DNA from: a virus
Lineage: Duplodnaviria; Heunggongvirae; Uroviricota; Caudoviricetes
Length of the DNA: 11,511 nt
Reading direction: 5' to 3' (one strand)
IMG/VR virus record: IMGVR_UViG_2579778919_000009
Coordinates: 1 to 11,511 of that record
The notes beneath the pieces are model-generated. The model was given only the letters and a program-made list of their open reading frames with translations, did not search any database and was not told where the DNA came from. Within the stretch, counting starts at the first letter, position 1. Every line of letters starts with the position of its first letter. Position numbers and translations under genes: made by a program. Of the stretch, positions 1 through 11,511 are shown piece after piece.

Positions 1-495
1 GTGTCTGATTCTATGAGTTACGCTGTGCTAGTTGCCGCAACTCTATTTATGGGGATAGGGTTGCAGATTGCGTGGTTCTTTTTTTCTAGTTTTATTAAAC
101 GCAAAAGAATTGAATCAAGGATATCTGAGATTTCTATTGCTATAGGGAAAAATGCTGAAAATCCAGAGAATGAGGCCTGCGCACTGAATTACCTTAAAGA
201 AAAGTTTTCCCCTGAAAAATTTGAAAATAGAATTACTGATGCTCTTGGATTGGTAATATCAGTAATTCATATGCCACTAAGTTTGCTGATAACAGTGTGG
301 TACTTCGCCATGATCGCCGGAAGAATATTTGGTTTCATGAATATAGAGCCTGTAGTTCTTTGGGTTCCAATGATACTGCAACTGTTGTTAAGCGTTGCTA
401 TCTTTATTTTTTCTGTTTTTATAAAAATTGTCTTTGGAAGATACCCCGGAGAAGCTAAGGGATTTAATAAAGAATTCATAAAAACTATAAAATAA
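1..495 (+). CDS. Small AT-rich integral membrane protein (about 3 predicted TM helices); 5' end at or beyond window edge; possible moron / superinfection-exclusion-type gene
   Basis: ORF open from base 1 (GTG; first ATG at 13) to TAA at 493-495. Hydrophobic stretches [76 protein letters not shown]. Visibly AT-rich compared with the rest of the window. Convergent with the 613-aa virion protein gene. No family recognised by eye. Confidence 0.5.
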
Positions 496-517
496 ATGCC
501 GTCCTTGGCTTACAGTG

Positions 518-2359
518 CTACTGCCGGGTCGCTTCGTTAGCTAAGAGCGGGCGCACGGCAGTAGCAGCCTGATTTAGCGCTCTTTCATAAGCTGGCGTTC
601 CAGCTTTAGTGTTTGCCAGACGTAAGAGCGCATTCCTTGCTGCTTTGGACTCATACAAACGCATCATTGCACCAAAACCAGCCTCAAGCCCCATTGATAC
701 TCCAAGAGTCGCAGTTGCGCCAATCGTCCTTATCCTGTTGGCTTGTGATTGCCCCGTCTGAGTTACTACATTTGCGGTGTCTGACCTTGCTGTTTGCTGT
801 AGAACTTCATGAAGAGCATCGAGCTCTTTCATGTGCTTTCCAGAAAAAATAGTGTTGTAAATTTCACCGCCTGACTGAGATTTAAGCTTATTAACTTCAG
901 TGATGAACTTGGCTGGAGAGTCACCGGCCTTTTCCGCTATTTTGCTGACGTAAGCTGCACGCATAGCATCTTTCCCTTTATCATCCAATGCGCTCCAGAT
1001 TCGTTTCACGTCAGATGGTTTTCTGCTTAATACAACGGTATTTATAAGTTCAGGACTGGCTTCACTGCTTGCCTTGTTGAGCTTGTTAGCAATGTTTTTA
1101 TTAAGCACCTTATTATAAACGTTTGCATAATCTGAATTTGCTTTAAGGTATTTTGCTGCGTCTGATGCACCGAGGTTTTTAGCAACTGCGTTACGAAGGT
1201 CTTTTGACATTGCATTCTCTACCATATTGGTAGCTGCTTTTGCCTGGTTGGGGAAGACCATAGCATCTCCCTGAACATTAGATCTAAATGCTGTTCTGTG
1301 CTGACGCAAGAGATCAAACGTAACATCCAAATCAGTTGCAGGGTTTGCTAATTCTTCGCGTAGGTTACGCAAGGATGTAAGCAGGCTTTGATTGGCAGAC
1401 GTCCCAAGCCGTTCCTGTCTTGCGATCGCTGTATTCAGAGCATTCATAGTGTTTGTGGTATCAACTGCGGCATTCCCCATTTTATTGGTGACGTCATTGA
1501 TAACAGCGCCAGCGGCATCCTTCCGTCCCCTTAACGTGGTGGTCAGAGATTTCACCACATCATCCGGGTTGTACTCACCAAAACGGTCAAAATAATTACT
1601 TACCAACTTACTACGCGTTGCATATTGCTCCGCTCGCTTTGAGCCTGTCCCGAGCAAAGCCCCCTCGGCATCCTGAGTAAGGCCGCGAGTGAAAGCATTT
1701 TTCGGCGGGATAACATCAGATGTCATTGGTGTCACGCCCATCGATTCTGATGTGGCAATTTTCTTCGCCACTTCTGGCGCAATATCACCTTTTATAGCCG
1801 TTATTCCACGCCCTATTCCCTTTGCTGCTGCGGAAAGAACCCCCTGAGCGGCAAGGTTAACTCCGGCATTTTTAGCTGCATTTTGTGCGAAATCGCCTTT
1901 CTGATTTGCGGCCTCTGCCAGTGATCCAATAGCCATGCTTCCTGCCGTTCCAACTCCTGGAACTAAATACCCACCAATTGTTTCACCGGCTTGTGCGTAT
2001 GGGTCTGTCGGTCTGTCTACTGGACGATAAACATCATCCAAAACCTTGGGTCCACCAAGCCCCTGACTGATTGCATTAATCAGACTTGCGCCGCCCTGCA
2101 ATACGTCAAATGGTATGTTTACCAGACCACGACCAGCCTGCTCTGCAATTTGCCCTGCACTTTGACCACCTGTGAGCCAATCGCCAGCTTGTTGCATCAA
2201 TGATGGTTCTTCACGTGCTGGTTCATTATTGGCCTGATTAACTGTTTGTTGCTGAACAGCCTGACCAGCAAAATACTCATCAATGGCGGTGCCAATATCT
2301 TCCGTGCTCGTACCATCAGGGAAGGTAAATGTCTTACCGTTTGCAGTTACTTTCATCAT
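518..2359 (-). CDS. Phage internal virion / DNA-ejection (DNA transfer) protein, P22 gp16-like, 613 aa
   Basis: Long ORF rich in Ala/Gly/Gln/Asn with a Gly/Ala-rich segment ([23 protein letters not shown]...). Size and position (after a gp20-like segment, before a small membrane protein gene) match the P22 gene 20 - gene 16 arrangement. Start ATG overlaps the upstream stop (ATGA), suggesting translational coupling. Family assignment is from memory, not a search. Confidence 0.6.
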
Positions 2360-3933
2360 TCCACCGTAAATTGAATGCCTGATTTTGAGGTATATGATCC
2401 GGATTGACTCTGCTGCTGTTGGGTATTTGTCGGTTGTTGGCTATTGCTCTGTTGTTGACTATTTGCAACACTTGAAACCACCAAAGCATCATAAACGCGA
2501 CCAGACTGACCACGTAATGAGTTATATTGGCCCTGCATTTTTCGCATTTTTGTTTCAGTAGCAGCCTTGGAATCACCAGGCTGAGGCAGGTACATTTTGG
2601 AATACTCCTGCATCTCTGGCAGAGTAATTGCTGCACCTGTTTCTGGGCGCAAAATTGCATACAAGGCGTCTCTCGCATTTACCATATATTGCTGCTCCGC
2701 TGGTGATAGGCTTAAATTTGCAATAGTCCCATCACCAAGAGAGCGATTTATTAATGCAACTCGCTTAGGGTCAATGCTTTTACTAAGCTGATTCATTGAG
2801 TCCATTGAATCTTTTAATCGCAAAGCAAATCCTGCCGCCTTCTTGGAACCCTCATTAGCCTTATCTATGATGCTTTGCGCTTGTGGCAAACTAATTGGTT
2901 TAATGCCATCACCAGATATAGGTTGGTTTAGTTTTCCGGCTTCCTCGCTGCCATCGGTGTAATACTTAGTTACCGAGCCATCAGGATTGGTTTCAACCTT
3001 AAGTAATTTCTTAGCATTGGGATTAATTCCCGCCGCTGCCGCAAATGCCGCTGCACCATCTGGATCCGCCTTTAACATTTGCGCGTACTGATTGTAATTC
3101 TGCATTGCGGCTGTTGGTGCATATGCTGACGTTAACGCATTTGCTCGGCTAATATCCTGCCCTCTCGCCTGAAGTGCTTCGCTGGCCTGATTGCTGCGGA
3201 TTGTCTCTGCCAGTCTGCCTCGGTCAATCTCACGACCAGCTATCTTGTCCTGAACAGCAAACGCCTTTTCTGGCCCAAGTGCACCGAGAGACATAGTAGT
3301 CAGCATGTGTGATAGCTGCTCTGGATTCTGGATACCTGTCTGAATCATCCAGTCAGCATTAGCCCCCACACGATTTAACCTGTCCTTGTTGTCAGTAATG
3401 AATTTACTGTAGGCTTCCGGTCCCTGAGAAAGAGCGACGTTAGCCCTCATGGCTAAATCGCCCATATCGTTGCGTTGCTGCTCATTAAGACCGGAAAACG
3501 CCTGTTGTGCCTGTGCAACAAACGCTGGATTTCCAGATCTGATACTGAGAACGTTTCGTCCAGCAACTGGAGAGAGTTCGACGGTGGCATCATTGCCCAT
3601 GCCGGAGGCGCTGGAGGTTTCGGCTGAGGATGGCACAGGGCATTTTCCTTTGACGAGCACCCTGCCACCATTATCAAGCTTGCGCCGAAGAGCATCATTT
3701 TCAGCTTTCGCATCAGCTAACTCCTTCGTGTATTTAGCATCGAGTGCATCAGCATCACGCTGGCGCTGCTGCATGTCAGTAATGGTGGCAGTCGCCTGCT
3801 TCAGCTCACTGACTTTTTTATCACGCTGCTCTTTGTAGGCGATGGCATTATCACGGTAATGATTGACCGCCCATGACAGGCAGACGATGATGCAGATAAC
3901 CAGAGCGGAGATAATCGCGGTGACTTTGCTCAT
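2356..3933 (-). CDS. Chimeric ORF: Rz-type i-spanin N-terminus (about 120 aa) fused in frame to about 400 aa of ejection-protein-like sequence (P22 gp20-like)
   Basis: N-terminus [30 protein letters not shown]...[19 protein letters not shown] closely matches lambda Rz as I recall it (TM anchor plus coiled coil). Rz is about 150 aa, but this ORF runs on for 525 aa with Ala/Gln/Asn/Ser-rich sequence and no Rz-like C-terminus. Rz start overlaps the R stop (ATGA). Confidence 0.6.
3453..3713 (-). CDS. Rz1-type o-spanin lipoprotein embedded in the +1 frame of Rz; C-terminus extended/altered by the same junction
   Basis: [22 protein letters not shown]... has a lipobox-like signal (VAGC) followed by a proline-rich [16 protein letters not shown] segment, as in lambda Rz1. 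It is 86 aa against about 60 for lambda Rz1; the tail after about residue 55 is unrelated. Confidence 0.55.
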
Positions 3934-4268
3934 ACCTCAACCTCTCTGACCGTTCCGCCTGCTTCTTTGAATTTTGCAATCAGGCTGTCAGCCTTATGCT
4001 CGAACTGACCATAACCAGCGCCCGGCAGTGAAGCCCAGATATTACTGCAACGGTCGATAGCCTGACGGATATCACCGCGATCAATCATCGGTAAAGCGCC
4101 ACGCTCTTTAATCTGCTGCAGTGCCACAGCGTCCTGGCTTTTCGGAGAGAAGTCTTTCAGTCCAAGCTGCTTACGGTAGGCATCCCACCAACGGGAAAGA
4201 AGCTGGTAACGTCCGGCGGCTGTTGATTTGAGTTTACAGGCATAACCCTGTACAACATCAGGAGGCAT
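3930..4268 (-). pseudogene. R: Endolysin R (lambda-type lytic transglycosylase) C-terminal fragment; N-terminal about 55 residues including the catalytic region missing
   Basis: KLKSTAAGRYQLLSRWWDAYRKQLGLKDFSPKSQDAVALQQIKERGALPMIDRGDIRQAIDRCSNIWASLPGAGYGQFEHKADSLIAKFKEAGGTVRE is near-identical to the C-terminal about 100 aa of lambda R from memory. The first 11 codons (MPPDVVQGYAC) are unrelated and are encoded by the sequence that forms the upstream/RBS region of the opposite-strand replication gene. Confidence 0.85.
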
Positions 4269-4273
4269 CCAGT

Positions 4274-5101
4274 ATGGGGTATGTCTCTATACACCGCCAG
4301 TTTATGGACAGCAGGCTCTATAAGGACTCTCAGGCAGTACATCTTTGGCTTCACTTAATCCTCAAGGCTAATCACGAATCTACTGTCGTCAATACGGATA
4401 TCGGTCCGATAACTGTTGATCGCGGTCAGATGATAACTGGACGCCCGTCGCTGGTCAGAGAAACATTCATCCCCGACAACAAAGTTCGGAGCTTATTACG
4501 GACTTTTGAGTCGAAAGGTATGCTTAATATTTGCTCGATGGGGAAGAAATTTAGCCTGTTTACAATCGTTAAATATGACGATTTTCAGGCAAAAAATTGT
4601 CCAACGGTTGTCCAACAGTTGTCCAACGCAAACACCAGTAATGGTGCGGCTCTCAGCGGAGATTGTCCAACGGTTGTCCAACGGTTGTCCATAAACAATA
4701 ATATAAATAATATCTCTAATACTGACGTATTAGAGAGTGCTACAGCAGACAAAAAGTCTGACAAGAAAAAACCTTCCGTCAGCTGTCAGGATGTTGTCGA
4801 TGCTTACCACGAAATCCTTCCTGAAGCGCCAAGAATCCGCGCACTGAATGACAAGCGTAAAAACCAGATCCGAACGTTCTGGCGCAAAGCCGGAGTGATA
4901 ACCCGCCAGCTTGACGGGCATGGGTTCACGATGCAGGACTGGAGAAATTATTTGAGCTACGTAGGCGAAAATTGCCGATGGATGTTCGAAGAGCGTCCAA
5001 ACCATCAACGCGGAACTGTCTGGCACAAAAAGGGATTTGATTTCCTGCTTAACGATAATACCTACCTGAAAGTTCGTGAGGGTGAACACGATGACCGATA
5101 A
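4274..5101 (+). CDS. Replication initiator protein (lambda O / P22 gp18 functional class) with origin iterons inside its coding sequence
   Basis: Good RBS (GGAGG about 8 nt upstream of ATG 4274). Origin-type iterons and an AT-rich region sit mid-gene, as in lambda O. The stop overlaps the start of the downstream helicase gene. Confidence 0.7.
   Translation: MGYVSIHRQFMDSRLYKDSQAVHLWLHLILKANHESTVVNTDIGPITVDRGQMITGRPSLVRETFIPDNKVRSLLRTFESKGMLNICSMGKKFSLFTIVKYDDFQAKNCPTVVQQLSNANTSNGAALSGDCPTVVQRLSINNNINNISNTDVLESATADKKSDKKKPSVSCQDVVDAYHEILPEAPRIRALNDKRKNQIRTFWRKAGVITRQLDGHGFTMQDWRNYLSYVGENCRWMFEERPNHQRGTVWHKKGFDFLLNDNTYLKVREGEHDDR
4597..4695. repeat. Origin iterons: two clusters of three tandem 11-bp repeats (TTGTCCAACGG / TTGTCCAACAG / TTGTCCAACGC, then TTGTCCAACGG x2 and a degenerate TTGTCCATAAA)
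   Basis: Direct tandem repeats read at about 4597-4629 and 4663-4695, separated by about 33 bp. They encode the repetitive linker CPTVVQQLSN...CPTVVQRLS of the initiator. Confidence 0.75.
4696..4740. other. AT-rich putative DNA-unwinding region with short palindrome CTCTAATA-N6-TATTAGAG next to the iterons
   Basis: Sequence ATAAACAATAATATAAATAATATCTCTAATACTGACGTATTAGAGAG lies immediately downstream of the iterons, the typical lambdoid ori layout. Confidence 0.5.
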
Positions 5102-6146
5102 TTTTTATGCGCCGCCCCATAGCATCGAGGCAGAGCAGGCGGTGATTGGTGGATTGCTTCTGGATGATGACAGCAGTGAGCGCGTCCAGAAGGTTCTGGC
5201 GATGCTGAAGCCTGATTCATTTTACAGCCGGCCACACAAAATCCTTTTCGAAGAAATAACCAGAATGCACCGGGAGCAAAAGCCAGTAGATGGCCTGACG
5301 CTTTTCGATGAACTGGAGCGTAAATCGTTAACTGTGTCTGTTGGCGGTTTTGCTTATATCGCTGAGATCGCAAAGAACACGCCAAGCGCAGCAAACATCG
5401 TTGCCTATGCAATGCAGGTTCGTGAAACCGCAATGGAACGCTACGCCATCAACCGTATGACTGAAGCGACGGAATTGCTCTATTCCCGCAACGGAATGAC
5501 TGCAACGCAGAAGTACGAAGCTATTCAGTCGATTTTCACGCAACTGACAGACCATGCAAAAACCGGATCGCGTCGCGGCCTTCGTTCATTTGGTGAGGTC
5601 ATGGAAGACTGGGTTAGCGACCTTGAGAAGCGATTTGACCCGTCAGGCGAACAACGAGGAATGAGCACAGGGATCCCATCGCTGGACAGGATGCTGTCAC
5701 CGAAAGGTCTGGTGAAAGGCTCTCTGTTTGTCATTGGCGCTCGCCCTAAGATGGGGAAAACGACGCTATACAGCCAGATGGCAATCAACTGCGCAGTGCA
5801 TGAGAAAAAGCCCGCTCTGATGTTCAGCCTTGAAATGCCAGGTGACCAGATACTGGAAAAACTGGTAGGGCAGAAGTCTGGTGTTAACCCGAATATTTTT
5901 TACCTTCCGGCGACAAATGACGCTGATGACGGCTATCAGGGTGATTACGATGGTGACTTCAACAGGGCGATCGAAACAGCCAATCGCTTGAGTGAAATCG
6001 ACCTGCTTTACATCGACGACACGCCGGGATTATCTCTGGCTCAAATCGTCAGCGAAAGTCGTCGAATCAAGCGAGAAAAAGGATGTGTTGGCATGATTCT
6101 GGTCGATTACAGGGAGAAGGCGCATGAGACTCGAAAGCGTAGCTAA
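5091..6146 (+). pseudogene. DnaB-family replicative helicase (P22 gp12 class), C-terminal about 110-120 aa missing
   Basis: N-terminal DnaB signature NFYAPPHSIEAEQAVIGGLLLD, Walker A GARPKMGKTT, Walker B-like MILVDY. The ORF stops about 10 codons after Walker B, with an unrelated tail (REKAHETRKRS) that overlaps the Q start region. Likely true start is ATG 5091 (the ORF track starts at 5076). Confidence 0.7.
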
Positions 6147-6603
6147 ATTTCATTCGCCAAAAAGCCCGATGATTAGCGACTCACCACGGGCTACAGCTTC
6201 TGACTCTCTTTCCGGTACTGATGTGATGGCTGCTATGGGGATGGCACAATCACAGGCCGGATTCGGGATGGCTGCATTTTGCGGTAAGCACGAACTCAGC
6301 CAGAACGACAAACAAAAGGCTATCAACTATCTGATGCAATTTGCACACAAGGTATCGGGGAAATACCGTGGTGTGGCAAAGCTCGAAGGAAATACTAAGG
6401 CAAAGGTACTGCAAGTGCTCGCAATATTCGCTTATGAGGATTATTGCCGTAGTGCCGCGACGCCGGGTGCAAGATGCAGAGATTGCCACGGTACAGGCCG
6501 TGCGGTTGATATAGCCAAAACGGAGCAGTGGGGGAGAGTTGTTGAGAAAGAGTGCGGAAGATGCAAAGGTGTCGGCTATTCAAGAATGCCAGCAATCAGC
6601 TAA
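6124..6603 (+). pseudogene. Q: Late-gene antiterminator Q (lambda Q type), C-terminal about 50 aa missing/replaced
   Basis: MRLESVAKFHSPKSPM...CRDCHGTGRAVDIAKTEQWGRVVEKECGRCKGVGYSRMP matches lambda Q from memory, including the CxxC...CxxC zinc motif. It ends after about 159 aa (lambda Q is about 207). No PR'/qut or holin follows. Confidence 0.75.
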
Positions 6604-6605
6604 CT

Positions 6606-6766
6606 TAACGACGCCCATGTTTCACTCCTACTTTGGCTAGTCTGTAAACACCAACAAGGCGCTCTGCGAACGCCCTGTTATTTGCTGCGGCTACCACTAA
6701 TCCCTCAGGTGAATCAGGGTGTCGAATCTCTTCTTTTTCCTGGTATTTCTTACGACGTTTTGTCAT
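6606..6766 (-). CDS. Small basic ORF (53 aa, MTKRRKKYQEKEE...) occupying the position of the 5' end of the replication gene downstream of cII/oop
   Basis: SD-like GGAGT about 4 nt upstream of the ATG. The start codon overlaps the -10 of the oop-type promoter on the other strand, which is where the O start sits in lambda. It ends at the junction with the inverted Q fragment. No recognisable family. Confidence 0.3.
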
Positions 6767-6769
6767 AAT
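6741..6769 (+). promoter_or_regulatory. Po-like promoter for oop RNA (TTACGA - 17 nt - CATAAT)
   Basis: Sigma70-like hexamers with 17-nt spacing, placed just upstream of the oop-homologous sequence. Confidence 0.5.
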
Positions 6770-6776
6770 TACTCCT

Positions 6777-6853
6777 GTAGATTGATCCAGTAATGACCTC
6801 AGAATTGCATATCAATTTGCTTAAAATCCTCGGTGGCGGCCGGGGATTTTTTC
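6777..6853 (+). ncRNA. oop: oop-like antisense RNA overlapping the 3' end of cII, ending in an intrinsic terminator
   Basis: GTAGATTGATCCAGTAATGACCTCAGAATTGCAT...CCTCGGTGGCGGCCGGGGATTTTTTC closely resembles lambda oop RNA as I recall it (the block GATCCAGTAATGACCTCAGAA appears identical). Terminal hairpin CCUCGG/CCGGGG plus U-tract. Antisense to the last about 18 codons of cII. Confidence 0.7.
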
Positions 6854-7095
6854 TTTGTGATTCCATCCAATGCATACTTAAAAGCCCTGCTAATCGGACT
6901 GATGTCTGATGCCATTCCGAAAGCACACAAGACCGAAGCAATAAACCTCCAGTCCGTTCTGCTTATCTTCGATTCATGACAGCCAATCATCTTTGCCAGA
7001 CCGCGCTGGGTAAGCGTTGACAGGTTGATGAGTAAATCAGTTTCAGCGCGATCAATTTCTCGCTGTGTTGGCTTGCTATAACTTGCTTGTGTCAT
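6799..7095 (-). CDS. cII: CII-family transcriptional activator
   Basis: HTH region (LAKMIGCHESKISRTDWRFI) and C-terminus (KKKSPAATEDFKQIDMQF) resemble lambda CII (KSQISRWKRDWI, NKKRPAATERSEQIQMEF). Sits downstream of cro and nutR, as in lambdoid phages. Confidence 0.8.
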   Translation of the reverse strand: MTQASYSKPTQREIDRAETDLLINLSTLTQRGLAKMIGCHESKISRTDWRFIASVLCAFGMASDISPISRAFKYALDGITKKKSPAATEDFKQIDMQF

Positions 7096-7106
7096 TTGTT
7101 AATTTT
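7073..7106 (+). promoter_or_regulatory. PRE-like CII-dependent promoter (TTGC-N6-TTGC around the -35 region, -10-like TAATTT), reading antisense through cro toward cI
   Basis: TTGCTATAACTTGC direct-repeat tetramers with 6-nt spacing lie inside the 5' end of cII on the opposite strand, the same layout as lambda PRE. Confidence 0.45.
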
Positions 7107-7179
7107 CCAATAGTGAATAGTTAGTTGAAAGGTATGCGTGGAAACGCATATGGCCTTAGTTGGTCAGATATCTTGGGGC

Positions 7180-7225
7180 TCGCTTTGTCAGCGACGTAGG
7201 ACGAATGTCCATTGTGAAAAGAGCG
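7180..7225 (-). promoter_or_regulatory. nutR: boxA (CGCTCTTTT) followed by a boxB hairpin of the P22 type (loop GACAAA)
   Basis: On the - strand, just downstream of the cro stop: CGCTCTTTTCACAATGGACATTCGTCCTACGTCGCTGACAAAGCGAGC. The boxB stem-loop matches the P22-type GCGCUGACAAAGCGC rather than lambda GCCCUGAAAAAGGGC. A 7-bp stem hairpin at about 7133-7150 may be part of tR1. Confidence 0.55.
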
Positions 7226-7232
7226 GTGTTAC

Positions 7233-7433
7233 TTATGCAGTTGTTTTTTTGTTACTTGGGAAGGGCTTTATTTCTTCCGCATAAACGCTTCCATCAGCGT
7301 TTATAGTTAAAAAAATCTTTCGGCCTGCATGAATGGCCTTGTTAATCGCGCTTTGATATACGCCGAGATCTTTAGCCGTCTTGGTTTGCCCAAAGCGTAT
7401 TGCATAATCTTTCAGGGTTATGCGTTGTTCCAT
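7233..7433 (-). CDS. cro: Cro repressor
   Basis: 66-aa product [66 protein letters not shown] is essentially lambda Cro (one or two substitutions, from memory). Confidence 0.95.
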
Positions 7434-8247
<814 letters not shown>

Positions 8248-8278
8248 TTGTTTTATTTTTCACGTAATAGGATGATTT

Positions 8279-8620
8279 ATGACACAATTTCAACTTGCAT
8301 TAATCGCTAGAGAAGTTGATGGAGAAGTCATCCATCTTCGCACCAAAGACGGATACATCAATGCCACCGCGATGTGCAAGTCTGCGGGGAAGCTACTTGC
8401 TGACTATACACGACTAAAAACAACACAAGATTTTTTTGATGAATTATCACGCGATATGGGGATTCCCATATCGGAGTTAATTCAATCATTTAAAGGCGGA
8501 AGAGCAGAGAATCAAGGGACTTGGGTTCATCCAGACATCGCAATTAATTTAGCTCAGTGGCTATCTCCAAAATTTGCAGTGCAAGTATCGAGATGGGTGC
8601 GTGAGTGGATGTCAGGTTAA
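8279..8620 (+). CDS. KilA-N domain protein (113 aa) in the rexA/rexB position, co-transcribed with cI
   Basis: YINATAMCKSAGK...ENQGTWVHPDIAINLAQWLSPKFAVQVSRWV fits the KilA-N domain pattern as I recall it. SD AGGATGA upstream of the ATG; only about 31 nt separate it from the cI stop, with no terminator between. Confidence 0.65.
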   Translation: MTQFQLALIAREVDGEVIHLRTKDGYINATAMCKSAGKLLADYTRLKTTQDFFDELSRDMGIPISELIQSFKGGRAENQGTWVHPDIAINLAQWLSPKFAVQVSRWVREWMSG

Positions 8621-8659
8621 AGAGCGCCTGCCGAACTCCCTATCCACCTTAAGCGGTAT

Positions 8660-8965
8660 ATGACAAACCGAGGCAGAGTTCCTCATACGCACTTTTCTAT
8701 GCTTAATGAACTGACGTTTAACTTGGTTGCGCCACTTGAACAGGCCGGATATACGCTGCCAGAAAAAATGGTCCCTGATATTTCAGAGGGTAGGGTTTTC
8801 TCGCAATGGCTCCGTGACAACCGGGGGGTTGAGCCGAAGACATTCCCAACATATAACCATGAGTACCCAGATGGCCGGACATTCCCGGTACGTCTATACC
8901 CAAACGAATATTGCAGATTTCAAACAATACTTCAACGAAGTGTGGCTGCCTCAGTACGCTCCTAA
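8660..8965 (+). CDS. Hypothetical protein, in the same frame as the KilA-N ORF and separated from it by a single TAA; probable frameshift near 8890-8910, after which the alternative frame continues to 9038
   Basis: 8279 and 8660 are in the same frame, with 13 sense codons and one TAA (8618-8620) between them. Weak RBS before 8660. The overlapping ORF 8727..9038 has a protein-like C-terminus (NIADFKQYFNEVWLPQYAPKYFAERDQRALTLIEKIML). Confidence 0.45.
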   Translation: MTNRGRVPHTHFSMLNELTFNLVAPLEQAGYTLPEKMVPDISEGRVFSQWLRDNRGVEPKTFPTYNHEYPDGRTFPVRLYPNEYCRFQTILQRSVAASVRS

Positions 8966-9047
8966 ATATTTTGCTGAACGAGACCAAAGGGCATTGACGT
9001 TGATTGAGAAAATCATGCTACCTGACCTTGATTCCTAAATGTTATTC

Positions 9048-9073
9048 CCGGCCACAGAGCCGGGTTTTCTTTG
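9048..9073 (+). terminator. Intrinsic terminator closing the cI / KilA-N operon
   Basis: CCCGGC-CACAGA-GCCGGG hairpin (6-bp GC stem) followed by TTTTCTTT, about 10 nt after the 9038 stop. Confidence 0.7.
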
Positions 9074-9112
9074 CCTCACGATCCCCCTCACCCAAGAACA
9101 CATAACCAATTG

Positions 9113-9138
9113 TATCTATTTGAAAATAAATAGATACA
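9113..9138. repeat. Perfect 10-bp inverted repeat GTATCTATTT-N6-AAATAGATAC between the terminator and OL3
   Basis: Read directly; AT-rich, so more likely a protein-binding site than a terminator. Confidence 0.6.
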
Positions 9139-9225
9139 ACTCACTAAACATAGCAGTTCAGATCTCTCACCTACCAAACAATGCACCCCTGCAAAAAATA
9201 AATTCATATAAAAAACATACAGATA

Positions 9226-9295
9226 ACCATCTGCGGTGATGAATTATCTCTAGCGGTGTTGACATAAATACCACTGGCGGTGATACTAAACACAT
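9226..9295 (+). promoter_or_regulatory. Left operator OL3-OL2-OL1 with PL promoter (-35 TTGACA, -10 GATACT), transcribing rightward in this window
   Basis: TATCTCTAGCGGTGTTGACATAAATACCACTGGCGGTGATACTAAACACATCAGCAGGACGCAC is near-identical to lambda PL/OL1/OL2 from memory. An OL3-like site AACCATCTGCGGTGA lies about 20 bp upstream. Confidence 0.9.
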
Positions 9296-9355
9296 CAGCA
9301 GGACGCACTACTCACCAGGGCGGTGAATATACAACGATTCAAATATGAATCTACG

Positions 9356-9370
9356 GCGCTGACAAAGCGC
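9356..9370 (+). promoter_or_regulatory. nutL boxB hairpin, P22 type (GCGCTGACAAAGCGC)
   Basis: 5-bp GC stem with GACAAA loop, about 65 nt downstream of the PL start and about 130 nt upstream of the N-like start codon. No convincing boxA identified. Confidence 0.55.
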
Positions 9371-9498
9371 AATAACCAAAGTGAACTTTGGGGTGAATGC
9401 AGAAGCTAACCTTCTCGGCGGAGGCGCTTTGCAATGATTACGCTACCGGAGTTAGTCGCCCGGCTGTATTCACCGCCAAAGTTCACCAGGAGGTCTAT

Positions 9499-9666
9499 AT
9501 GACACGCAGAACTCAGTTCAAAGGCAATTCACGTTCTCGTCGTCGTGAGCGTTTAAAGGCAAAGGCATTAGCTAACGGCGTACTGGCCCGCGAAGAAGCA
9601 ATAAGTTCAGAAGTATTACACCGCCCTACGCCATCATCAATGTTGCGGCGATCGGCATCACCTTAA
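9499..9666 (+). pseudogene. N-type antiterminator, N-terminal arginine-rich motif retained (about 35-40 codons), remainder lost at a deletion junction
   Basis: Strong SD (CAGGAGG) before ATG 9499. MTRRTQFKGNSRSRRRERLKAKA resembles the P22 gp24 arginine-rich motif (GNAKTRRHERRRKLAIER, from memory). Only 55 codons against about 100 for N proteins; the 3' part overlaps the RecT frame. Confidence 0.55.
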
Positions 9667-10364
9667 ACCCAGCCAGCAAACTTGCTTATCTAGTTCCGCG
9701 CGACGGCATGGTTTGCCTTGATATCAGTTATATGGGATTGCTCCATATTGCAATGGAGTCTGGTGTTATCTCATGGGGTCAGGCAAAACTTGTTCATGCT
9801 AACGATACCTATGAGTCAAACGGGCTTGATAAAGCACCAACCCATAAATACAACGCCTTCGGTGATCGTGGTGATATCGTTGGCGTTTACTGCACAGTTA
9901 AGACGCCAGCAGGTGATTATCTAACGGAAGAGATGAGTCTGGCTGAAATTGAGGCTGTAAGGAAAACAAGCAAGGCGGCATTCAGCGATAAAGGACCATG
10001 GGTAAATCACTGGAATGAGATGGCGCGAAAGACGGTCGTAAAGCGTGCAAGCAAGTATTGGCCTAAGGCATCACGTCTTGATAGTGCTATTCACGTACTA
10101 AACGAAGAAGAAGGTGTATGGACTGAACCAGTTATGCCGTACAAATCAGAGGAAGATATCCGCGAAGATGAACGGAAACGCCAGCAGGAAATAACGGATA
10201 AAGCACAACTTCTTTGTGATGAAATGGCTCAGGCAGAAAACATGGATGATTTGAAGCGATATTTTGCAGAAGCATATCGCCTGACATCTGGAATGAAATT
10301 GCAGCATAACGTACAAGCCATTTACATAGAATGCAAAGCGAAACTGGAGGTTGCCAGTGAGTAA
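9576..10364 (+). pseudogene. recT: RecT-family single-strand annealing protein lacking about 50-60 N-terminal residues and any start/RBS of its own
   Basis: Frame open from 9576. ...YAIINVAAIGITLNPASKLAYLVPRDG... and KGPWVNHWNEMARKTVVKRASKYWPKA align to E. coli RecT (FVSAIVQCSQLGLEPGSALGHAYLLPFGN; GPWVTHWEEMAKKTAIRRLFKYLP). First in-frame Met is at 9708. Confidence 0.75.
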
Positions 10365-10839
10365 ACTATATGAAATAGCCAATGAATACGCAAAATTGAT
10401 GGATTCAGATTTAGAGCCAGAGATGATTGCTGACACAATAGAAGGCATGGAAGGAGAATTTACCGATAAAATAGAGCAACTTCTTTCCGTCATTAAAAAT
10501 GAATCTGGTTATGCTGAACGCCTCAAGGAAGAGGCAAAGTCACTGAATGAGCGAGCCGCAGTAATTCAAAATAAGATTGACAGCATCATATCATATATAG
10601 CGTCATCGCTTGAAATGGTAGGCAAGAAAAAGATTAGAGCAGGTATTCACCAGGTAACAATCCGCAAACCGTCAGAAATTGTAGAAATAATCGACTCAAG
10701 CGCCCTTCCTCCTGAATACGTTGAGTTTGAAACAACAATTAAAGCCGACAAACTGGCAATCAAACACCAACTAAAAGCAGGAATAAATATCCCCGGCGCT
10801 CAACTCAAAGTTGGGAAACCTTCACTTCTTATCAAATAA
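10351..10839 (+). CDS. Siphovirus Gp157-family protein (recombination-module accessory protein)
   Basis: LYEIANEYAKLMDS...DTIEGMEGEFTDKIEQL...GKKKIRAGIHQVTIRKPSEIVEIIDSSALPPEYVEF...LKAGINIPGAQLKVGKPSLLIK fits the Gp157 family pattern as I recall it. Probable start is GTG 10357 (GGAGG 6 nt upstream); it overlaps the RecT stop. Confidence 0.7.
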   Translation: MPVSKLYEIANEYAKLMDSDLEPEMIADTIEGMEGEFTDKIEQLLSVIKNESGYAERLKEEAKSLNERAAVIQNKIDSIISYIASSLEMVGKKKIRAGIHQVTIRKPSEIVEIIDSSALPPEYVEFETTIKADKLAIKHQLKAGINIPGAQLKVGKPSLLIK

Positions 10840-10850
10840 CGGTATCGCCT

Positions 10851-10985
10851 ATGAAAAAGACTCCATGGGAGAAATGGGAAGTCGATTTCTTGCGCGAAGT
10901 AGCGGCGACAAGGCCATATAACAACAAACCCTGTCGCTGCCACTCGCGCAGCAAAATCAGAGGTAAGGAGATCAAGACTTACGGC
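10851..10985 (+). other. Short remnant ORF (MKKTPWEKWEVDFLREVAATR...), 5' end of an unidentified gene running out of frame into int-derived sequence
   Basis: ATG 10851 opens a 44-codon frame. From about 10905 onward the DNA is int sequence read in a different frame. Confidence 0.25.
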
Positions 10986-11511
10986 TGACGAATACCTGAA
11001 AATTTATCAAGCAGCAGAATCATCACCATGTTGGCTCAGACTTGCAATGGAACTGGCTGTTGTTACCGGGCAGCGAGTTGGTGATTTATGCGAAATGAAG
11101 TGGTCTGATATCGTAGATGGATATCTTTATGTCGAGCAAAGCAAAACAGGCGTAAAAATTGCCATCCCAACAACATTGCATGTTGATGCTCTCGGGATAT
11201 CAATGAAGGAAACACTTGATAAATGCAAAGAGATTCTTGGCGGAGAAACCATAATTGCATCTACTCGTCGTGAACCGCTTTCATCCGGCACAGTATCAAG
11301 GTATTTTATGCGCGCACGAAAAGCATCAGGTCTTTCCTTCGAAGGGGATCCGCCTACCTTTCACGAGTTGCGCAGTTTGTCTGCAAGACTCTATGAGAAG
11401 CAGATAAGCGATAAGTTTGCTCAACATCTTCTCGGGCATAAGTCGGACACCATGGCATCACAGTATCGTGATGACAGAGGCAGGGAGTGGGACAAAATTG
11501 AAATCAAATAA
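10903..11511 (+). pseudogene. int: Integrase (lambda Int type), catalytic domain only; N-terminal arm-binding and core-binding domains deleted; no xis
   Basis: Int frame open from 10903: ...GHITTNPVAATRAAKSEVRRSRLTADEYLKIYQAAESSPCWLRLAMELAVVTGQRVGDL...HELRSLSARLYEKQ...HKSDTMASQYRDDRGREWDKIEIK. This is near-identical to lambda Int residues about 168-356 from memory and keeps the catalytic residues, but about 170 N-terminal residues are absent. Confidence 0.9.

Follow-up and report, generated by a model that had tools for sequence, protein, structure and literature searches.

The DNA analysed here, referred to as the window, is a stretch of 11,511 nucleotides (positions 1 to 11,511 of IMG/VR record IMGVR_UViG_2579778919_000009). 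It belongs to a defective (cryptic) prophage, recognizable as such by chromosomal flanks at a known att site and by essential genes that are missing or truncated. Its features, with the evidence for each, are:

1-495, plus strand: sieA, 164 aa, type A (phrog_7745, E = 9e-109; 92% identity to P22 SieA)
518-2359, minus strand: gene 16, ortholog of the ejection / DNA transfer protein gene of phage P22 (ORF, phrog_770, tblastn, MAFFT, PF26808)
2356-3933, minus strand: Rz::gp20 in-frame fusion ORF, 525 aa (PF03245 and PF16928; phrog_13 and phrog_917; BLASTP)
3453-3713, minus strand: Rz1 (o-spanin lipoprotein) ORF embedded in Rz (phrog_3198, residues 1-61 of 86)
3531-3534, no strand: deletion junction with GGAA microhomology (three-way alignment of the window, an intact Rz from L011 and an intact gene 20 from L001, the intact P22-like prophage of E. 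coli Combat2C1, NZ_CP019243.1)
3930-4268, minus strand: 3' fragment of the endolysin gene (lysozyme, 'R) (partial phrog_90; 94.5% nucleotide identity to the 3' part of the L001 lysozyme gene)
4274-6603, plus strand: inverted block with an O/gp18-like initiator, a truncated DnaB-like helicase and a truncated Q (phrog_345, phrog_19, phrog_127)
7458-7486, minus strand: PR-type promoter, TTGACT-17-GATAAT (10/12 matches)
7534-8247, plus strand: intact cI repressor, 237 aa (phrog_4; HTH_3 and Peptidase_S24 on the identical protein)
10918-11511, plus strand: lambda/434-type integrase, C-terminal portion only (partial phrog_1 and phrog_7244)

No gene for terminase, portal, scaffold, coat, gp4, gp10, gp26, gp14 or gp7 was found in the window, from which a holin gene is also absent, and those for lysozyme, Rz, gp20, Q, DnaB and int are truncated. 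The endolysin fragment lacks its N-terminal part, and its frame is open over 112 codons with no stops. The truncated integrase (int') has an open frame of 197 codons, or 154 aa from its first ATG at 11047; it shares 99.3-99.5% nucleotide identity with the int genes of 434 and Huey, and adjoins ybhC at att-lambda. The immunity region, cI-cro-cII, has 97% nucleotide identity to that of HK97. N and RecT gave partial PHROG matches only, suggesting truncation, and a Gam-like gene is also present in the window by PHROGs. A bstA-like gene is split into three ORFs, a lesion that may predate lysogeny. SieA is complete, with its conserved FxRYPxEAxxFNK motif; its gene converges on gene 16, and its promoter lies outside the window.

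The inverted block, whose O/gp18-like initiator comes with 11-bp ori iterons, sits between cro-cII and the late-gene remnant. What remains of its Q corresponds to bases 32932-32460 of the L001 gene, the first ~157 of 207 codons. At one edge of the block the start of 'R at 4268 adjoins the inverted O-like gene at 4274 (six bases), and at the other the end of the truncated Q at 6603 adjoins orf53 at 6605, with cII also on that side, such that a late promoter would not fit at either edge. Upstream on the gene 16 strand, PR is the sole strong sigma-70 match; it lies next to the cI repressor and is controlled by it. The total of promoter-like sites is at the expectation from shuffling, with no enrichment. 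With Q truncated and no room for the native late promoter, gene 16 is probably silent. PR read-through after induction, or a weak internal promoter, may conceivably transcribe it.

Gene 16 and the Rz::gp20 fusion

A reading made from the sequence alone had described a 613-aa gp16-like ORF without internal stops, coupled by an ATGA overlap to an upstream chimera, and each of these points is borne out. In the ORF listing of the window, the frame at 518-2359 runs from an ATG start over 613 aa with no internal stop; by our own estimate, the probability that a random frame is free of stops over 613 codons is about (61/64)^613 ~ 1e-13. Homology searches likewise confirmed the proposed family. The protein matches phrog_770 ("DNA transfer protein") with E = 2.4e-280, its residues 1-613 aligning to positions 1-663 of the 668 in the profile. 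In a tblastn search of phage genomes, P22 gene 16 and the window protein share 75.9% identity at 100% query coverage, while a MAFFT alignment of the two proteins gives 77%. PF26808 (Phage_P22_gp16) is assigned to the identical protein in a precomputed Pfam table; our local Pfam-A and NCBIfam copies returned 0 families for gp16, the former seemingly lacking PF26808. A PDB sequence search with gp16 and the chimera as queries gave no match. A tape measure identity, which the sequence-only reading had named as a possible refutation, was checked and rejected: all four PHROG matches are to gp16-related families, and the flanking genes, gp20 and sieA, are those of a short-tailed phage of the P22 type. 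Public databases already list the protein as a DNA transfer protein; its family, the gene order and the decay of prophages by deletion are likewise established knowledge. In its normal role gp16 is packaged in the virion and ejected, and helps DNA across the inner membrane. The membrane activity attributed to it in the sequence-only reading agrees with the discussion of Perez et al. in PMC10883804.

The start region of gene 16 reads GTG GAA TGA TG AAA, preceded by a conserved Shine-Dalgarno-like GGTGGA. The first ATG (2359-2357) overlaps the TGA of the chimera (2358-2356) to form ATGA, and a second ATG (2356-2354) is the start homologous to that of P22, yielding the 612-aa form found in public annotations, with a one-base TGATG overlap. 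The 20/16 junction of P22 itself reads GTG GAA TAA TG AAA, i.e. a TAATG overlap; the coupling is therefore ancestral and uninformative about this locus, and we rejected the preserved ATGA overlap as a sign of function. Divergence from P22 tells of an earlier period. With pS of 0.80 (saturated) and pN of 0.16, gene 16 was under strong purifying selection during its phage history, and because synonymous sites are saturated, dN/dS against P22 says nothing on the host phase.

Upstream of gene 16, the chimera combines an Rz domain (PF03245, residues 29-142) with a gp20 domain (PF16928, Inj_translocase, residues 130-262). The BLASTP match to P22 gp20 begins at chimera residue 135 and gp20 residue 101, and the protein thus comprises residues 1 to ~134 of the Rz i-spanin, including its N-terminal membrane anchor, followed by gp20 from residue 101 to the end. 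The GGAA at the junction is common to the parental sequences on the Rz side and the gene 20 side. The embedded Rz1 frame reads through across the junction, and its C-terminus is rewritten. Relative to the intact L001 prophage, ~12 kb is missing between the breakpoints, which in L001 holds the small and large terminase subunits, portal, scaffold, coat, gp4, gp10, needle, gp14, gp7 and the first 100 codons of gene 20. A single illegitimate recombination at GGAA, with one breakpoint close to the 3' end of Rz and the other at codon 100 of gene 20, would account for this loss, and an in-frame Rz::gp20 product would have been a one-in-three outcome. The in-frame fusion with an Rz anchor could be such chance or a hint of function.

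If the fusion, gp16 and SieA were expressed at a low level, the gp20 periplasmic body on its inner-membrane anchor, together with the coupled gp16 and SieA, might act as a domesticated decoy or exclusion module that traps or mis-assembles the DNA-delivery conduit of an incoming P22-like phage. Such a decoy would constitute a new link between ejection proteins and SieA-type exclusion, turning the attacker's ejection proteins into a defence against it. SieA prevents P22-like phages from injecting, and escape mutations map to gp16 and gp20 (PMC10883804). However, excess ejection proteins overcome SieA exclusion (PMC10883804), from which it follows that host-expressed gp16 more plausibly weakens exclusion than helps it, and we consider a decoy function extremely improbable.

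The gene 16 allele is itself a mosaic, with patchy nucleotide matches in the phage collection, the best of which reaches 83% identity over 43% of the gene; high mosaicism of gp16 and gp20 among P22-like phages has also been described (PMC10883804). This mosaicism, and the report in PMC3945230 that temperate phages acquire defective-prophage DNA, would fit a remnant from which superinfecting P22-like phages pick up alleles of gene 16, gene 20, sieA and the tailspike gene by homologous or relaxed recombination. No recombinant phage with this allele was present in the phage collection, however, and donation would be a consequence of retention in the host rather than its reason; we attach hardly any probability to it.

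Integration site, distal arm and carriers

The wider context of the element was obtained from other assemblies that carry it. In L002-L008 it is flanked by ybhJ-ybhC on the int' side and, beyond the tailspike gene, by ybhB-bioA, which identifies the site as E. coli att-lambda. The chromosomal flank matches the bio operon of one complete E. coli genome at 100% identity and those of the others at no less than 95%. Five of these loci (L003, L004, L006, L007 and L008) contain the complete distal arm up to ybhB, in the order 20'-16-sieA-orf193-mnt-arc-ant-tailspike. The tailspike gene lies just past the left edge of the window and in these sister genomes encodes 672 aa with a P22 head-binding domain; its frame is open in L002, L003, L004, L006 and L007. 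The earlier statement that all head and tail genes had been lost thus holds within the window, but not for the prophage lineage, since the sister genomes keep an intact tailspike. Moreover, gene 16 is not singled out: the whole block from the gene 20 breakpoint to attR is kept, and the "retention" of gene 16 merely marks where one deletion ended.

The exact chimera protein is listed in 273 blocks of the assembly collection and occurs on 133 contigs, the exact gp16 protein on 139. The comparison covered 11 junction carriers, eight found via the exact chimera protein and three via the junction 43-mer GAAACGTTCTCAGTATCAGATCTGGAAATCCAGCGTTTGTTGC irrespective of the state of gp16. The former sample is biased toward undamaged neighbors, and the unbiased junction scan comprises three copies, two of which span gp16. 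All 11 junction-bearing loci are 99.8-100% identical to the window. Their chromosomal flanks, compared in eight loci with each side covered in seven, show identities of 99.96% or more: 100% in seven loci, and one 1-bp indel in L006. Such near-identity of both elements and flanks indicates that the carriers are one clone.

Within this clone, each of the nine copies spanning gene 16 encodes a complete gp16, and none of them carries the inactivating mutations that the sequence-only reading had named as a refutation. The only change in gp16 is a single nonsynonymous SNP, A465V in L007, with 0 synonymous changes. The clone decays by rearrangement: the 11-bp iteron varies in copy number, L003 has a frameshift in the truncated dnaB, L005 and L009 share a 1.2-kb deletion of window 6110-7341, and in L005 an IS element stands in place of all that lies from 24 bp upstream of sieA up to and including the tailspike gene.

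Beyond the clone, no complete RefSeq E. coli genome record contained the Rz::gp20 junction, and none covered more than 42% of the remaining window. NZ_LR536431.1 shares the bio flank but has a different prophage at att-lambda. An exact junction scan of species-representative genomes returned 0 matches, and a gp16 alignment scan of the same genomes returned a single Citrobacter locus, too few for a frequency of gp16 orphaning. A literature search found no published description of this remnant. Altogether, 518-2359 is a genuine full-length copy of P22 gene 16 in a badly deleted prophage, carried by one young E. coli clone.

A probably recent deletion and the open frame of gene 16

For the intact frame, the sequence-only reading had offered either a recent deletion or retention for a host-beneficial role. 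The former is supported by the single clone, by the dead fragments of the element, and by comparison with the nearest intact prophage copy of gene 16, in the functional L001 prophage; only 6 of the 1842 bases separate that copy from the one in the window, three of them synonymous and three nonsynonymous. The resulting omega of 0.31 is, by our own binomial estimate on six differences, not distinguishable from neutrality. Among all possible substitutions in gene 16, 3.5% create stops, and six substitutions would leave the frame free of stops with a probability of 0.81, a value that supposes all six differences arose after the deletion. As a control, five dead fragments (the lysozyme 3' part, the gp20 part, int', Q' and dnaB') likewise have 0 internal stops in the window. 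The intactness of gene 16 is best explained by recent deletion. Selection on gene 16 is unneeded to explain the data, and a clone with a single gp16 SNP has no statistical power to reveal or to exclude it.

Selection of gp16 for a benefit to the host, alone or together with the anchored Rz::gp20 protein, found no support, and we regard it as very unlikely. Possible routes would be obstruction of the conduit that an incoming P22-like phage builds across the envelope, or some other membrane activity. The intact ORF with its Shine-Dalgarno-like sequence and overlapping start would accord with such a role, as would the in-frame fusion that keeps the Rz anchor, and gp16 is membrane-associated and, with gp20, a genetic target of the SieA encoded next door (PMC10883804). 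However, retention covers the whole distal block rather than gene 16 specifically, the dead fragments are equally open, Q is truncated with no room for a late promoter, and no signal of purifying selection is seen, the sole change in the clone being nonsynonymous. Host-made ejection proteins would, if anything, titrate SieA, the exclusion by which is overcome at high MOI (PMC10883804). Independent, recurrent retention of gp16 in deleted prophages was not seen in the sample taken, which is small and in which the junction copies are one clone; another common gp16 allele resides in complete virion modules in nine of the ten distinct contexts among those listed.

A benefit could instead lie with the neighbors of gene 16, if useful sieA exclusion and cI immunity keep the block and gene 16, 22 nt from the 3' end of sieA, hitch-hikes. 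The sieA product is complete, retains the conserved motif and is 92% identical to functional P22 SieA (PMC10883804), which works in E. coli and requires no other phage protein (PMC10883804), and cI is intact. Yet one sublineage (L005) has lost the position of the P22 PsieA promoter to the IS element, showing that sieA is not strictly maintained. Linkage, moreover, gives no protection from internal mutation, and would explain at most why gene 16 was not deleted, not why its frame is open. We thus consider linked retention unlikely.

Overall, we favor, with a probability of roughly 0.8, a passive, recent and probably silent late-operon remnant. The identity of the gene, the anatomy of the element, the clonality of its carriers and the absence of decay in the dead fragments are shown by the data, and we infer from them the silence and neutrality of the remnant. 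The phage it came from would have been temperate and P22-like, with a lambda-type integrase and immunity region, and would have integrated at E. coli att-lambda, between ybhC and ybhB-bioA. After the single deletion proposed above, the distal block (gene 20', 16, sieA, mnt, arc, ant and tailspike) would have survived whole. Gene 16 would be undamaged still because the deletion is young, with carriers that form one clone and have almost no point mutations, and its product would be unable to do its virion job here, since portal, coat, terminase and the other virion genes have been lost. Other lesions, such as the split bstA-like gene, mean that some time has elapsed.

The finding is an ordinary, recent prophage remnant, of little importance by itself and of use as a worked example. 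An open frame in a remnant is not evidence of selection when its carriers are a young clone and its dead fragments are equally open. Here, large deletions and rearrangements have broken up the prophage far ahead of any build-up of point mutations.

Comparison with known systems

Gene 16 of P22 encodes 609 aa, against 613 here, and occupies the same place after gene 20 with an overlapping stop and start and the same 22-nt spacing to a convergent sieA. Residue G532 of P22 gp16, a SieA-escape site conserved in five P22-like phages (PMC10883804), aligns with G536 of the window protein (MAFFT), and P546 is replaced by Ala. Unlike P22, the window element has no portal, coat, terminase, gp4, gp10, gp26, gp14 or gp7 genes, and with these virion genes missing its gp16 cannot be packaged or ejected.

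The intact Combat2C1 prophage (L001) shares 99.4% nucleotide identity with the window over 1-3532, a segment that comprises sieA, gene 16 and gene 20 from codon ~100. It keeps full virion, lysis and Q modules and lies at argW/intS, not att-lambda. Its Rz and lysozyme genes represent a more distant allele, of which only the part corresponding to window 3817-4235 aligns, at 94.5%.

The tenth context of the other common gp16 allele, L024 (an SRR7656242 contig), carries an independent portal-to-gp4 deletion with intact distal genes. Its head genes are deleted, leaving a 64-aa fragment of the portal and no scaffold or coat; gp10, needle, gp14, gp7, gp20 and gp16 are kept as called full-length genes. 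It differs from the window in its breakpoints (portal to gp4), its gp16 allele (615 aa) and its site (argW), and represents the same ordinary mode of decay as the window remnant.

The window also resembles the cryptic or defective lambdoid prophages of E. coli that decay by deletion, in which large deletions and rearrangements accompany few point mutations, and immunity and exclusion genes survive. Its own rearrangements comprise int', probable truncation of recT and N, the inverted replication block, loss of nin, and the Q-to-R and Rz-to-gene-20 deletions. The two differ in ancestry, in that cryptic lambdoid prophages are of lambda-like siphovirus origin, whereas the window remnant is that of a P22-like podovirus at att-lambda.

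Lysis and replication regions

The deletion junction that joins Rz to gene 20 has also altered the nested spanin gene:

3453-3713, minus strand: Rz1 o-spanin ORF, nested in Rz

Rz1 has acquired a foreign C-terminal tail through read-through across the junction. The lysis cassette of the remnant is dead, since Rz lacks its last ~20 codons, the endolysin is truncated and the holin gene is absent. Further losses surround the adjacent replication genes:

4274-6603, plus strand: replication block, comprising the O/gp18-like gene, a truncated DnaB-like gene and the first ~157 codons of Q

This block is inverted relative to cro-cII, with edges at 4268/4274 and 6603/6605; the nin region, the 3' end of Q, the holin and the 5' end of the lysozyme gene are missing around it, and no space is left there for a late promoter. 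The O-like gene contains two clusters of 11-bp iterons (TTGTCCAACGG; 4585-4702), which presumably constitute the phage origin. Iteron copy number varies between the sister genomes that share the junction, with 11-bp indels in loci L005, L007 and L009.

Exclusion genes and integrase

Two phage-defense genes and a truncated integrase are found elsewhere in the window:

1-495, plus strand: sieA, type A
8279-9038, plus strand: BstA-like abortive-infection gene (phrog_6287, profile length 304)

The E. coli SieA of the window shares 92% identity with P22 SieA from Salmonella. Some gene callers place the start farther upstream and predict 188 aa for SieA; the first base of the window is that of the start codon of the 164-aa form, and the sieA promoter therefore lies outside the window. 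The BstA-like gene is split into three ORFs of 113, 101 and 103 aa, and its lesion may predate lysogeny. This lesion is of the point or indel type; elsewhere the element decays via large deletions.

The int genes of phage 434 and of Huey (PQ850609.1), a P22-like podophage, match the truncated integrase (10918-11511, plus strand) at 99.3-99.5% identity. The Huey match thus indicates that P22-like phages with a lambda-type integrase exist, which explains the presence of a P22-like remnant at att-lambda.

Occurrence of the chimera and continuing deletion

In the assembly collection, 273 blocks list the exact Rz::gp20 chimera protein, which is present on two contigs of 5.2-5.3 Mb, yet the junction was found in none of the 5,426 complete RefSeq E. 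coli genomes. Deletional decay is still ongoing within the clone. In L005, representing one sublineage, an IS element (DDE_Tnp_1 transposase; L005 13957-15151) has taken the place of a stretch that begins 24 bp upstream of sieA and takes in the tailspike gene at its far end, and L005 and L009 share a 1.2-kb deletion (window 6110-7341) that removes Q', orf53, cII and part of cro.

A P22-like prophage at argW (L024) retains gp10, needle, gp14, gp7, gp20 and gp16, all called full length, and carries a deletion (L024 3780-4407) that runs from portal, reduced to a 64-aa fragment, to gp4, called at 116 aa. This prophage is unrelated to the window element, and its deletion arose independently.
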